Shown here piece by piece: positions 3,001 to 12,000 of a stretch of 64,000 bases of DNA. Position numbers: made by a program. How positions within the stretch are numbered: the stretch's first letter is position 1; each line of letters opens with the position of its first letter. The stretch is from assembly GCF_055900595.2 (NCBI RefSeq), contig NZ_CM148325.1; one strand, written 5' to 3'.

Positions 3001-6000
3001 TAGGGATTATTCGCGACGATCCACACGCCCTGCGCGCCGCTTTTATTGAAGCCGATAGCCAGGCGGATGTGGTGATCAGTTCCGGCGGTGTTTCAGTGGG
3101 TGAAGCGGATTACACCAAAACCATTCTTGAAGAGCTGGGGGAGATCGCCTTCTGGAAGCTGGCGATTAAACCAGGTAAACCGTTCGCGTTCGGTAAACTC
3201 AGCAATAGCTGGTTCTGCGGCCTGCCGGGCAACCCGGTTTCAGCAACGCTGACCTTCTATCAACTGGTACAGCCTTTGCTGGCAAAACTAAGCGGCAATA
3301 CCGCCAGCGGCCTGCCCGCGCGCCAGCGTGTGCGCACGGCATCGCCTCTGAAGAAATCGCCAGGACGCCTTGATTTCCAGCGCGGCGTGCTGCAACGCAA
3401 CGCCGATGGCGAACTGGAAGTGACGACCACCGGACATCAGGGTTCACATATATTTAGCTCCTTTAGCCTCGGCAACTGCTTTATCGTACTGGAGCGCGAG
3501 CGCGGCAATGTGGAAGTGGGCGAATGGGTGGAAGTAGAACCGTTTAACGCGTTGTTCGGAGGCCTGTAATGGCGGAACTCAGCGATCAGGAGATGCTGCG
3601 CTACAACCGGCAAATCATTCTGCGCGGTTTTGATTTTGACGGTCAGGAGGCGCTAAAAGATTCTCGTGTGCTGATCGTCGGCCTCGGTGGACTCGGCTGT
3701 GCAGCTTCGCAGTATCTGGCAAGCGCCGGTGTCGGCAACCTGACACTGCTCGACTTCGACACGGTTTCGCTCTCGAATCTGCAACGCCAGACTCTGCACA
3801 GTGATGCCACGGTCGGGCAACCGAAGGTGGAATCCGCCCGTGACGCCCTGACGCGGATCAACCCACATATTGCGATTACACCCGTCAATGCACTGCTAGA
3901 TGACGCAGAACTTGCAGCATTGATTGCTGAACACGATCTGGTGCTCGACTGTACGGATAACGTTGCGGTACGCAATCAACTGAACGCAGGCTGTTTTGCC
4001 GCAAAGGTGCCGCTGGTTTCCGGGGCGGCAATTCGTATGGAAGGGCAAATCACGGTCTTCACTTATCAGGACGGCGAGCCTTGCTACCGCTGCCTTAGCC
4101 GTTTGTTTGGCGAAAATGCGTTAACCTGCGTAGAAGCAGGCGTGATGGCACCGTTGATCGGGGTGATTGGTTCGTTGCAGGCAATGGAGGCGATCAAACT
4201 GCTGGCAGGTTATGGCAAACCTGCCAGCGGCAAAATCATCATGTACGATGCGATGACTTGCCAGTTTCGCGAAATGAAACTGATGCGTAATCCGGGGTGC
4301 GAGGTGTGCGGGCAGTAATTGCCAGCCCCAGGCCTGATAAGTCGCGGCAAGCGTCGCATCAGGCATTTGCTCCAGACGCCAGATGCGGCGTGAACGCCTT
4401 ATCTGGCCTACGGTTCGGGCGCAGATTTCCAGGCGCGGCAAGCGTTGGTGCACTCCACCATGTCATCAGCAATTGATGAGGATGCAGAACGTCCGGTTAA
4501 ATCGACGTTCTGCCAAAAGCCCCCTGCCAGTCCTGCTCAAACTTCGCCACGGCGGCATCAACTGCCGGATAGCTAATCATCTGCTGCGCCACATCCAGTG
4601 GCAGCGTGATTGATTCACATCCTGCCAGTAAGCAATCCAGCGCCTGACGCGGGGTTTTAAAACTCGCGGCTAACACTTTCGCCTGCGGCGCATGCATTTT
4701 CAATAACTGGTGTAAATCGGTCACAGTTTGAATACCGCTACCGCCCTGAGCATCAATTCGGTTGACGTAAGGTGCAACGTACTCCGCACCTGCCAGCGCC
4801 GACAGCAGCCCTTGTGCCGCGCCATACACTGCCGTACCCAGCGTCGGAATACCTTCTGCTTTTAACATTTTAATAGCAGCCAGCCCCTCGGCAGTCACCG
4901 GAACTTTCACCACGATATCTGCAATAATAGAACGCAGTTGACGTGCATCATTCACCATCCCTTCGGCAGTGGTAGCCATTACCTGGGCAAACAGACGCCC
5001 CTGACCGCCCATCGCTTCGTGAAGCTCCGGAAGTACCACCTCCAGCGGTTTTTTACCCGCGGCGATAATACTTGGGTTAGTGGTCACACCCGCCAGCGGA
5101 AAAATACGTGACAGTGTCTTCACCGCAACAACGTCTGAAGTATCCAGATACAGTTCCATAACCATCCTCAAAATGTACTTTTTGTCTGAATGTAGACTAT
5201 CACGGGAAAACTCTCTGAACAGTTGACGCACATCAATCTAACTTTCATTCGAAAGTATTTTAATGTTTGAACGAAACAGAGAGGCAACTATGATTTTCAA
5301 TATTCAGCGCTACTCGACCCATGACGGCCCCGGTATCCGCACGGTCGTTTTTCTTAAAGGCTGTTCACTGGGCTGCCGCTGGTGTCAGAACCCGGAAAGC
5401 CGCGCCCGCACGCAGGATCTGCTGTATGACGCACGTCTGTGCCTGGAAGGCTGCGAGCTGTGCGCTAAGGCCGCGCCGGAAGCGATTGAGCGCGCGCTGA
5501 ATGGTTTGCTTATTCATCGGGAAAAGTTAACCCCGGAGCATCTGACGGCGTTAACCGACTGCTGCCCGACACAGGCGTTAACCGTGTGTGGTGAAGTGAA
5601 AAGCGTTGAGGAGATCATGGCGACCGTTCTGCGCGACAAACCGTTTTACGATCGCAGCGGCGGCGGCTTAACGCTTTCCGGTGGTGAGCCGTTTATGCAG
5701 CCGGAAATGGCGATGGGGCTACTGCAAACCAGCCACGAAGCCGGTATTCATACTGCGGTAGAAACCTGTCTGCATGTGCCGTGGAAATACATCGCCCCTT
5801 CTCTGCCGTATATCGATCTGTTTCTTGCCGATTTAAAACACGTTGCCGACGTGCCGTTTAAACAGTGGACCGACGGTAACGCCGCCAGAGTGCTGGATAA
5901 CCTGAAAAAACTCGCAGCGGCGGGGAAAAAAATCATCATCCGCGTGCCGTTGATACAGGGCTTTAATGCCGATGAAACCTCTGTGAAAGCCATTACCGAT

Positions 6001-9000: not shown

Positions 9001-12000
9001 AAGCAACTGTTCCACGGCGAACTGACCCGACATGAATCAAGAGTTGTCATTGGTGAACTGCTGAAAGACAAGCAGCTCAATTTTGTTGCCTGCGGTTTGC
9101 AAAGCGCGTATGTCAGTGAGAATGCGCCAGAAGCATTCGTCGCGCTAATGGCAAAACACTACCATCGTCTGAAACCTGTGAAAGATTACCAGGATATTGA
9201 TGATGTACTGTTCAAGTTTTCGCTCAACCTGCCTGACGAACAAATCCCGTTAGTGATCGACAAACTGCATATTACGCTCGATGGCATTATGAAGCCGGTT
9301 ACCAGTGGTTTTGGCTTTATCGACCTGATTATTCCTGGCCTGCATAAAGCGAATGGTATTTCGCGGTTACTGAAACGCTGGGATCTGTCACCGCAAAATG
9401 TGGTAGCGATTGGCGACAGCGGTAACGATGCGGAGATGCTGAAAATGGCGCGTTATTCCTTTGCGATGGGCAATGCTGCGGAAAACATTAAACAAATCTC
9501 CCGTTACGCTACCGATGATAATAATCATGAAGGCGCGCTGAATGTGATTCAGGCGGTGCTGGATAACACCGCTCCTTTCAATAAGTAACCTTTTCCCGGC
9601 CGGAGCAATCGTTCCGGCATCTCTCTTTTTTGCTCACTTTGTGCACTTACTCAAGATTTTCATCTTGCGTTAACTTATTTTTAACTTAAAGTATCAATCA
9701 TAACTATTTTTACTTTCGAACGAAAGTTGTGAGGTTGATATGACTTTTACCTATGAGACACTGCCAACAGATGCGAAAACGGCTATCCGTAAGATGAAAG
9801 CGGAGCTGCGACAACAGATCGGCGATTTACAACAGGTCTTCGATAAACTCTCTGCAAAAATCGAAGCACGTGTAGCAGAAATAGACGCCCTCAAAGGGCA
9901 AGGATTACCGGTTTGGCCGGAAGTCCCATATAGCGACGTTGCAGCAGGTACAGTGAGTGAAGCCACGCGCAATGAAATTAAACGTCGCGGCTGTGCAGTA
10001 ATTAAAGGCCATTTCCCCCGCGAACAGGCACTGGCATGGGATCGCGCAATGCTTGACTATCTTGATGCCAATCATTTTGATGATGTTTATAAAGGTCCCG
10101 GCGACAGCTTCTTTGGATCGCTGGAGGCATCTCGTCCTGAAATCTACCCTATTTACTGGTCGCAGGCACAAATGCAGGCGCGACAAAGTGACAATATGGC
10201 GGCGGTGCAATCTTTCCTTAACCGCCTGTGGAAGTCTGAAAGCAACGGCAGGCAGTGGTTTGATCCCGATATTAGCGTGATCTATCCGGACAGGATCCGC
10301 CGCCGCCCACCAGGCACGACGTCTAAAGGTCTGGGTGCACACACTGATTCTGGGGCGCTGGAACGTTGGTTATTACCCGCTTATCAGCGTGTTTTTGCCC
10401 ATGTTTTCAACGGTAATGTCGACGATTACGATCCGTGGGATGCTGCATACCGTACTGATGTTGAAGAGTACACGGTGGATAACACCACAAAATGTTCGGT
10501 GTTCCGCACTTTTCAAGGCTGGACGGCGCTTTCCGATATGTTACCAGGACAGGGATTATTGCATGTGGTGCCAATCCCGGAAGCGATGGCGTATGTTTTA
10601 TTGCGCCCACTGCTGGATGACGTACCGGACGATGAGTTGTGTGGGGTCGCTCCTGGCAAAGTTCTGCCCATTTCAGAGAAATGGCATCCACTACTGATTA
10701 AAGCACTCACTTCCATTCCAGCTATTACAGCGGGGGATTCCGTCTGGTGGCACTGCGACGTGATCCACTCCGTCGCACCGGTAAATAATCAACAAGGCTG
10801 GGGGAATGTGATGTATATCCCTGCCGCGCCGATGTGTGAGAAAAACCGGGCTTATGCGCATAACGTTAGGAAAGCACTGGAAAAAGGGGCATCACCGGGC
10901 GATTTCCCTCGAGAAGATTATGAAGCAAACTGGGATGGCCGATTTACGCTGGATGATCTGAACAATCACGGTAAGCGCGCGCTGGGCATGGATGTTTGAG
11001 AGGTGATGGATTAGTAGAAGTGAATTGATGTGAGGTTAAGAAAGCAGGTTCGGTGTTGCTCAGATTGCTGACAAAGTGCGCTTTGTTCATGCCGGATGCG
11101 GCGTGACTGTCTTATCCGACCTACAAAATCATGCAAATTCAATATATTGCGATACACTGTCAGGCCTGATAAGCGTAGCGCATCAGGCAATTTTGCATTT
11201 GTCATCAGTTTCAGTAGCCCTGACCCTATCAGGGCTACTGATAATAACTTACTCGATCCCTTTACTACGCAGGTAATCTTCGTAATTACCGCTAAAGTCG
11301 ATCACGCGTTCCGGGGTGATTTCCAGAATTCGGGTCGCCAGGGAGCTTACAAACTCACGGTCGTGAGAAACAAAGATCAGCGTGCCCTGATACAGTTCCA
11401 GCGCCATGTTCAGCGACTCAATGGATTCCATATCAAGGTGGTTGGTCGGTTCGTCCATGATCAGAATGTTCGGCTTCTGCATCATTAACTTACCAAACAG
11501 CATCCGCCCTTTTTCTCCACCGGAAAGCACTTTCGCTGGCTTTTTGATGTCGTCCTGGCTGAACAGCAAACGACCGAGAATGCTGCGTACCGCCTGCTCG
11601 TCATCGCCTTCCTGCTTCCACTGACTCATCCATTCGAATACGGTCAGATCATTTTCGAACTCATATTCGTGGTCCTGAGCATAGTAACCAATGCGCGCGT
11701 TTTCAGACCATTTTACGGTGCCACTGTCCGGTTGCAGATCGCCCACCAACGTTTTCAGCAGCGTTGATTTACCGACGCCGTTGGTACCCAATACCGCCAG
11801 TTTTTCGCCCACTTCCAGCAGCAGGTTGAGATTTTTAAACAGGGGACCGTTATCAAACCCTTTGGTCAGACCTTCCACTTCCAGCGCGTTACGGAACAGT
11901 TTCTTATCCTGTTCAAAACGGATGAACGGGTTCTGACGGCTGGAGGCTTTCACCTCTTCAAGTTTGATTTTATCAATCTGGCGTGCGCGCGAAGTTGCCT

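Follow-up and report, generated by a model that had tools for sequence, protein, structure and literature searches.

The analysed window is a stretch of 64,000 nucleotides of contig NZ_CM148325.1 (NCBI RefSeq assembly GCF_055900595.2) and comes from a divergent lineage of Escherichia, with 90–95% identity to most E. coli genomes; its gene calls were transferred from an annotated genome with 99.9% identity across the stretch. The ybi cluster comprises fsaA and, divergent from it, ybiY-ybiW, ybiV and ybiU, with a recurrent palindrome upstream of ybiY, ybiV and ybiU. Positions refer to the first letter of the window as 1:

4497..5159, minus strand, fsaA (start at 5159, divergent from ybiY)
5223..5236, putative FNR-type box TTGAC-GCAC-ATCAA, 4 bp from the ybiY operator
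5241..5256, very probable YciT operator of the divergent fsaA and ybiY promoters, ACTTTCATTCGAAAGT, with perfect 6-bp arms and central ATTC
5259..5264, plus strand, candidate ybiY -10 hexamer TTTAAT (the operator is immediately followed by the conserved block AATTTAAT)
5263..5278, candidate second site of degenerate sequence, or half-site, aTGTTTGAACGAAACa, with its centre about 22 bp downstream from the main ybiY operator
5290..8627, plus strand, ybiY-ybiW, glycyl-radical activase and glycyl-radical enzyme
8689..8704, very probable YciT operator upstream of ybiV, ACTTTCATTCGAAAta
8773..9588, plus strand, ybiV, sugar phosphatase
9712..9727, very probable YciT operator upstream of ybiU, ACTTTCGAACGAAAGT, perfect palindrome
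9740..10999, plus strand, ybiU, DUF1479 protein
17769..17786, minus strand, GGTTTCGGGTCGAAAATA, located at the opgE 3' end (opgE and ompX are convergent), with an arm spacing of 5 and not 4
23077..23090, third exact CTTTC-N4-GAAAG, between glnQ and ybiO (by BLAST to K-12)

The palindrome that a sequence-only reading had placed at 5241–5255 in the fsaA/ybiY promoter is present and extends to 5256; it is located 33 nt ahead of the ybiY ATG (5290) and, in the divergent direction, 82–97 nt ahead of the fsaA start (5159). The ybiU copy is likewise found at 9712–9727, as that reading had it, 12 nt ahead of the ybiU ATG (9740) and immediately followed by the GAGG ribosome-binding site; in the window it is a perfect palindrome, whereas the K-12 ybiU operator has a GGTTTC arm with two mismatches. 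A site also exists upstream of ybiV, 68 nt ahead of the ATG (8773), but its position is shifted by 10 with respect to the 8679–8692 first proposed and, due to its GAAAT arm, it is not an exact CTTTC-N4-GAAAG match; its right arm runs into a TATAAT hexamer (8703–8708). Two weaker relatives had also been pointed out: gtttgaacgaaac lies where it was described (5265–5277) and its CGAAA part is kept in orthologues, while gtttcattttcgag exists at 8745–8758, 10 positions away from the 8735–8748 reported, and is not conserved in the orthologous loci. The candidate site aTGTTTGAACGAAACa covers the putative ybiY transcription start, and in other genera its position is occupied by TCTTyATACGAAAG, a closer match to the motif.

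Outside the cluster, the exact core at 23077–23090 lies within a hairpin whose stem has 10 bp, CCTCCCTTTC-TTCC-GAAAGGGAGG, and by BLAST to K-12 is the orthologue of the weak 'ybiO' YciT ChIP-exo peak published with a signal-to-noise ratio (S/N) of 2.66; it is probably a low-affinity or incidental site. The opgE element (17769–17786) is the orthologue of the K-12 'ompX' YciT peak, with a published S/N of 14.9, and lies outside any promoter.

The CTTTC-N4-GAAAG core has three exact matches in the window, namely the ybiY site, the ybiU site and 23077–23090, against 0.07 expected, and none of 100 shuffles reached this number; in K-12 the motif seldom occurs away from YciT targets, which goes against the refuting condition of a promoter frequency no higher than in random sequence. 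The conservation predicted for the orthologous promoters was assessed on the orthologous loci of 80 Enterobacteriaceae species (1.09 Mb in total) and turned out to be near-invariant: 157 copies with at most one mismatch are present versus 2.4 expected, and 156 of them fall at the three promoter positions. In particular, the ybiY operator is found with at most one mismatch in 78 of the 80 loci, at -49 to -54 of ybiY, each of its 16 columns is at least 95% conserved, and no other block between fsaA and ybiY is as well conserved. The ybiU operator is kept at the same threshold in 58 of the 70 loci of sufficient length, 7–21 nt before the ybiU start, and the ybiV operator in 20 of 72 such loci, which become 42 when two mismatches are allowed. 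The flanking sequence differs between the copies, none being common to them.

The common regulator suggested for the three adjacent transcription units is YciT, and the earlier view that it could not be assigned to a known factor does not hold, since the assignment follows from published work (PMC8464067; 10.1101/2025.05.13.653802); the regulon is thus already known and not new. YciT peaks in ChIP-exo were assigned to ybiV (S/N 24) and ybiY (S/N 45), as well as to fsaA (Gao et al. 2021, NAR 49:9696, PMC8464067), and RNA-seq of the delta-yciT strain gave log2 fold changes of +7.7 for ybiY, +7.0 for ybiU, +3.5 for ybiW, +2.2 for ybiV and +1.8 for fsaA (PMC8464067), the greatest derepression concerning ybiY and ybiU, the genes with a two-armed palindrome immediately upstream. 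An earlier Reg-Seq source for the YciT regulon is Ireland et al. 2020 (PMC7567609), and in the more recent Reg-Seq preprint (10.1101/2025.05.13.653802) affinity chromatography and mass spectrometry showed an enrichment of YciT on the ybiYp bait, its site on ybiYp overlaps the RNA polymerase footprint and the ybiY promoter is active anaerobically. According to the same preprint RegulonDB lists YciT as an activator, and the K-12 RefSeq record labels it a dual regulator. YciT (b1284) consists of an N-terminal DeoR-type HTH (Pfam HTH_DeoR, residues 4–59, 1.4e-15) and a C-terminal DeoRC sensor domain (residues 69–227, 7.7e-47). Its gene belongs to the E. coli core, 5422 of 5426 complete genomes of the species carrying it, and in K-12 is located about 480 kb from the ybi cluster; it is absent from the 64-kb window, in agreement with the remark that no cognate regulator gene lies in the cluster. 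The palindromes are very probably operators of this DeoR-family repressor encoded elsewhere on the chromosome.

The published YciT motif is described as palindromic (PMC8464067), and its identity with the palindrome rests on our re-analysis of the peak list, in which the published coordinates were converted to current ones and the K-12 sequence under the peaks was read. Among the 13 YciT peaks outside the ybi locus, nine contain the core with at most two mismatches (0.27 expected) and six with at most one (0.03 expected); the motif is central in the peaks, as in those of yfcV, phnA/rdcA, yjiT, yjjI, oppA and pdeR, and its occurrence under other YciT peaks ties the palindrome directly to YciT. 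The K-12 sequence covered amounts to about 270 kb, roughly 6% of the genome; 15 core matches with at most one mismatch are present in 250 kb, and nine of these are ybi sites or YciT peaks. The two ybi-locus ChIP-exo peaks are displaced from the palindromes by about 111 and 164 bp after conversion and no motif lies under either of them, the other checked peaks being motif-centred. A discrepancy of about 100 bp was also remarked by the Reg-Seq authors (10.1101/2025.05.13.653802), and the published ChIP-exo coordinates at the ybi locus appear to be off by 110–165 bp; the palindromes fit the Reg-Seq position better than the ybi ChIP-exo peaks.

A simple sigma-70 scan of the three upstream regions gave no convincing promoters and a terminator scan of the same regions nothing usable; for this reason the promoter elements are deduced from conservation. 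On the basis of the conserved TTTAAT hexamer only, transcription of ybiY would start near 5271, in which case the FNR-type box would fall at -41.5, with the operator spanning about -30 to -15. The box TTGACGCACATCAA (5223–5236) matches TTGAT-N4-ATCAA at 9 of 10 positions and is the sole TTGAY-N4-ATCAA of the window. All 80 orthologous loci contain TTGA-N6-TCAA while its centre varies, the 42 full FNR-box matches carrying 17 spacer variants; the distance from box to operator centre is 19 bp in 40 of these 42 matches and 21 bp in one. The Reg-Seq preprint describes an unidentified activator at the ybiY promoter and never mentions FNR (10.1101/2025.05.13.653802), and no paper tying ybiY or fsaA to FNR was found in the literature searched.

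The palindromes could instead be bound by another factor, a DeoR-family paralogue or a competitor of YciT, the effects of YciT on the ybi genes being indirect. E. coli possesses many DeoR-family paralogues, deoR itself lying about 20 kb from the cluster, and the 111–164 bp that separate the published ybi ChIP-exo peaks from the palindromes would agree with such a factor; nevertheless, TGTTAGAATTCTAACA, which we take to be the DeoR operator consensus, has no match in the window at up to three mismatches, and the motif is central in nine of the 13 other YciT peaks. Moreover, the protein enriched on ybiYp DNA is YciT itself (10.1101/2025.05.13.653802) and the derepression in delta-yciT peaks at the genes right behind the two-armed palindromes (PMC8464067), so that this explanation is considered improbable.

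Still less probable is a role at the RNA level, in which the palindromes would form hairpins of 5' leaders or operon boundaries and influence stability, termination or translation, instead of being operators on the DNA. Each site can fold into a stem of 6 bp and a loop of 4 nt, the ybiU copy, 12 nt before the ATG, may be transcribed, and the ybiO copy is part of the 10-bp-stem hairpin; however, the folding energies are no better than those of shuffled sequences (z of -0.77, -0.90 and +0.09), on which ground the hairpin reading was rejected, and the ybiY copy is upstream of the putative transcription start. The arm sequence is invariant over three unrelated promoters in 80 species and the arm changes in the match lists are one-sided and not compensatory, which together indicate sequence-specific recognition by a protein. 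That the recurrence is due to chance, or is the remnant of a small repeated element without regulatory role, has a negligible probability and is already refuted by both the conservation and the coincidence with YciT peaks: the count of the full 16-mer with two mismatches is indeed not significant (five in the window versus 2.5 expected), but the exact core, the excess of near-perfect orthologous copies at fixed distances from start codons, and the lack of common flanking sequence all speak against it.

As for known systems, the palindromes read as YciT operators correspond to the YciT regulon of K-12, with the same regulator and with ybiU, ybiV, ybiW, ybiY and fsaA, plus ybiO and ompX, as targets in the window. 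The two-domain architecture of YciT is that of GlpR, AgaR, UlaR, SrlR, FucR, CsqR/YihW and YgbI, DeoR-family sugar-phosphate repressors of catabolic sugar or polyol clusters whose operators overlap core promoters; most of them are encoded beside their target operons, in contrast to yciT, about 480 kb away. Features common to the ybi cluster and the DeoR/deo system are a repressor of the DeoR family, a palindromic operator of 16 bp, the presence of several operators per cluster and an expected sugar-phosphate inducer. The operator sequence differs: for the deo operators O1, O2 and OE we assume the 16-bp palindrome TGTTAGAA-TTCTAACA, which finds no match at up to three mismatches in the window, and the ybi operators are 1.0 and 3.4 kb apart, each serving one promoter. 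The ybiY region also recalls class II FNR promoters with a pathway repressor, owing to the TTGA-N6-TCAA 41.5 bp upstream of the putative start and to the reported anaerobic activity (10.1101/2025.05.13.653802); the difference is that binding of FNR at the ybiY box is presumed.

In the mechanism that we propose, YciT would sit on each operator as a dimer or, like other members of the DeoR family, as a larger oligomer, and block RNA polymerase. The ybiY operator would lie between the FNR-type box and the -10 hexamer, that of ybiV would overlap the -10-like hexamer and that of ybiU would cover the region of the start or the early leader, immediately ahead of the ribosome-binding site. Binding of a phosphorylated sugar of the pathway to the DeoRC domain would then release the repressor. 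The most likely releasing sugar would be 1,5-anhydroglucitol-6-phosphate, judging from the function attributed to YbiW, for which this compound is the reported substrate (Ma et al. 2024, as cited in PMC12441222). Expression of ybiY and fsaA may in addition need anaerobic activation through the FNR-type box, generating an AND gate of anoxia plus inducer. More tentatively, as a possibility that falls somewhat short of being probable, YciT could be the dedicated sensor of the radical-mediated 1,5-anhydroglucitol pathway (YbiW/YbiY and FsaA), responding to 1,5-anhydroglucitol-6-phosphate or its product, with the conserved FNR box providing an anoxia-AND-substrate gate across the Enterobacteriaceae and representing the unidentified 'activator' site of Reg-Seq; no text linking YciT to anhydroglucitol or naming FNR at the ybiY promoter was found in the searchable literature.

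The YciT operators of the ybi cluster are now fixed to the base pair, the finding otherwise restating the published regulon. The near-invariance of operator and FNR-type box in 80 Enterobacteriaceae indicates that the ybi cluster is the likely core target of YciT, compared with the many weaker peaks, and suggests a testable circuit for the recently assigned anaerobic breakdown of 1,5-anhydroglucitol, in which activation by FNR would be combined with repression by YciT relieved by a sugar phosphate. In the paralogous cluster of K-12 (pflD/pflC-fsaB-ptsA-frw), the ptsA-frwC promoter region shows no YciT-like motif, and the cluster has its own neighbouring regulator gene, yijO.

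The window is Escherichia DNA in an orientation reversed relative to K-12, and the palindrome ACTTTC-N4-GAAAGT recurs in it at three promoters of the ybi cluster.

Genes of the ybi cluster and palindromic operators in the window
4497-5159, minus strand, fsaA
5241-5256, ybiY/fsaA operator, ACTTTCATTCGAAAGT, 33 nt 5' of the ybiY ATG
5290-6189, ybiY
6195-8627, ybiW
8689-8704, ybiV operator, ACTTTCATTCGAAAta, 68 nt 5' of the ybiV ATG
8773-9588, ybiV
9712-9727, ybiU operator, ACTTTCGAACGAAAGT, 12 nt 5' of the ybiU ATG
from 9740, ybiU

The palindromes that the sequence-only reading had placed at all three promoters are real, but the ybiV site and the second weak relative had been positioned 10 nt too low. 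That reading would have been undermined by a motif no commoner than in random sequence or by a lack of conservation in orthologous promoters, and neither was found: the core CTTTC-N4-GAAAG has three copies in the 64 kb (the third exact one at 23077-23090) against 0.07 expected, with 0/100 shuffles reaching three, and in the ybi loci of 80 Enterobacteriaceae species, retrieved with YbiY as anchor (1.09 Mb in total), the full palindrome with at most one mismatch gives 157 matches against 2.4 expected, counts which exclude chance recurrence. The species include Escherichia, Citrobacter, Salmonella arizonae and diarizonae, Enterobacter, Klebsiella, Raoultella, Kluyvera, Kosakonia, Lelliottia, and Phytobacter; 156 of the matches fall at the three expected promoter places, namely about 50 nt before ybiY (78/80 loci), before ybiV (20 loci), and 7-21 nt before ybiU (58 loci). 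The centre of the palindrome is also conserved, being ATTC or its complement GAAT in 143 of these 156 copies, and the operator stands out, in aligned fsaA-ybiY intergenic regions, as a block of at least 95% conserved columns in far more variable surroundings. An action of the palindromes as RNA hairpins is unlikely, as the predicted folds are no better than those of shuffled sequence and the arms are conserved in sequence, not covarying. The DeoR operator has no match in the window, and the paralogous pflD-fsaB cluster contains no such motif.

The common regulator proposed for the three transcription units is supported and corresponds to YciT, a DeoR-family repressor of E. coli with HTH_DeoR and DeoRC domains, which is the published regulator and has the motif under nine of its 13 other peaks examined. 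ChIP-exo identified 49 YciT sites, with a motif described as palindromic, and ybiV, ybiY, and fsaA were named among the targets (Gao et al. 2021, PMC8464067). Repression was shown by RNA-seq of a delta-yciT strain, in which the ybi-cluster genes rank among the most strongly derepressed (log2FC: ybiY +7.7, ybiU +7.0, ybiW +3.5, ybiV +2.2, fsaA +1.8; PMC8464067); the two largest effects, on ybiY and ybiU, concern the genes directly 3' of two-armed palindromes. In a Reg-Seq preprint, ybiY promoter DNA enriched YciT, whose site lies over the RNA polymerase footprint (10.1101/2025.05.13.653802). The ybi palindromes are thus members of a published regulon and, the identity of the regulator being published, their finding is already known; modest leads open to testing are the FNR-type box described below, the precise operator coordinates, and the suggested effector. 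The operator arrangement is typical of the DeoR family, and the sole unusual feature is the distance of the regulator gene from its main target: yciT, found in 5422/5426 E. coli genomes, occupies K-12 1343597-1344346, some 480 kb away from the ybi genes.

The published YciT peak coordinates (NC_000913.2) were mapped onto the present K-12 record with an offset of +777 or +1977 bp according to position, and the sequence was read under the 15 peaks lying within five 50-kb pieces of K-12, 13 of which are outside the ybi cluster. When up to two mismatches are allowed, the core occurs under 9/13 of the latter (0.27 expected), and when no more than one is allowed, under 6/13 (0.03 expected), at the peak centre in every motif-bearing case.

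Motif copies under YciT peaks outside the ybi cluster
yfcV peak, ACTTTCcGAATGAAAGT
phnA/rdcA peak, GTTTTCATTTGAAAGG
yjjI peak, K-12 4617147-4617177, yjjI-deoC intergenic, GCATTCATTTGAAAGT
oppA peak, CCTTTCAAATGAAACG
pdeR peak, K-12 1346879-1346894, GTTTTCAAACGAAAGT
ybiO peak, CCTTTCGGGTGAAAGG

Since the core is centred under nine of the 13 peaks, and YciT peaks or ybi sites account for nine of its 15 matches with at most one mismatch in the 250 kb, the palindrome is the YciT motif. The two ybi peaks are the exception, the K-12 sequence beneath their converted coordinates containing no motif: the "ybiV" peak (K-12 859232-859265, about window 9536-9569) lies 164 bp from a palindrome, within the end of ybiV, and the "ybiY" peak (K-12 863650-863677, about 5124-5151) lies 111 bp from another, inside fsaA. 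An offset of about 100 bp at this locus was also remarked by the Reg-Seq authors (10.1101/2025.05.13.653802). The yjjI site is upstream of yjjI-yjjW, another operon whose products are a glycyl-radical-enzyme-like protein with its activase; it also adjoins the deo promoters. The pdeR site is about 140 bp upstream of pdeR, a gene that precedes yciZ and yciT in the same orientation; if the three genes are co-transcribed, autoregulation of YciT through this site is possible.

At the ybiY promoter, a TTGAC-GCAC-ATCAA box (TTGACGCACATCAA, 5223-5236) lies 4 bp upstream of the operator, a conserved TTTAAT (5259-5264) begins 2 bp after it, and a degenerate half-site (5263-5278) covers the inferred start. 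The box has the FNR consensus pattern, making it a putative FNR site; TTGA-N6-TCAA is kept in 80/80 loci with a variable centre, and in the 42 loci that match TTGAY-N4-ATCAA completely its distance to the operator centre is 19 bp in 40 and 21 bp in one. With a ybiY start near 5271, the box would be at -41.5 and YciT at about -22, a geometry that fits the anaerobic activity of this promoter and the activator site, without a named factor, about 15 bp upstream of the YciT site, both reported in the Reg-Seq preprint (10.1101/2025.05.13.653802), which nowhere mentions FNR; the box is probably that activator site. Because it also lies about 41 bp from a candidate fsaA -10 (GATAGT/TAGTCT, 5194-5201, minus strand), a single box might serve both divergent promoters.

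At ybiV, the right arm of the operator runs into a TATAAT hexamer; just downstream, a CRP-like site (TGTGCTCTGCGTCACA, 8710-8725; 9/10 matches to TGTGA-N6-TCACA) is part of a block with cross-genus conservation (TTTGTGCT...GTCACATTGTTATTA). At ybiU, the ribosome-binding site is directly 3' of the operator, and a highly conserved A/T-rich block upstream (9664-9692, CTTGCGTTAACTTATTTTTAACTTAAAGT) has a TTAACTTA direct repeat and includes ATTTTTAACTTAAAGT, with three mismatches to the YciT motif; the block may supply the -35 and UP element of a very strong promoter, or may be an additional weak site of the YciT type. Sugar phosphates are the usual ligands of DeoR-family sensors. According to Ma et al. 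2024 (JACS 146:26187, as cited in PMC12441222), YbiW reportedly turns 1,5-anhydroglucitol-6-phosphate into 1-deoxyfructose-6-phosphate; this substrate and the ligand preference of the family together make 1,5-anhydroglucitol-6-phosphate, or a near relative, the likely inducer of YciT.

Two further sites in the window are orthologues of YciT peaks.

23077-23090, glnQ-ybiO intergenic site, orthologue of a weak peak (signal-to-noise 2.7)
17769-17786, minus strand, opgE 3'-end site adjoining ompX, orthologue of the "ompX" peak (signal-to-noise 14.9)

The former core belongs to a hairpin with a 10-bp stem, and the arms of the latter are spaced by five bases. The glnQ-ybiO intergenic region (23064-23179) is about 150 bp shorter than in K-12 (845481-845740); the additional K-12 sequence (845602-845732) shares 84% identity with window 11061-11191 and is therefore a small repeated element. 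Over the ybi stretch, only 8/5426 complete E. coli genomes reach at least 99% identity to the window and most are at 90-95%, which assigns the window to a divergent lineage of Escherichia. Two IS200/IS605 copies, near ldtB and ompX, are present in the closest complete genome (NZ_CP098223.1) and absent from the window.
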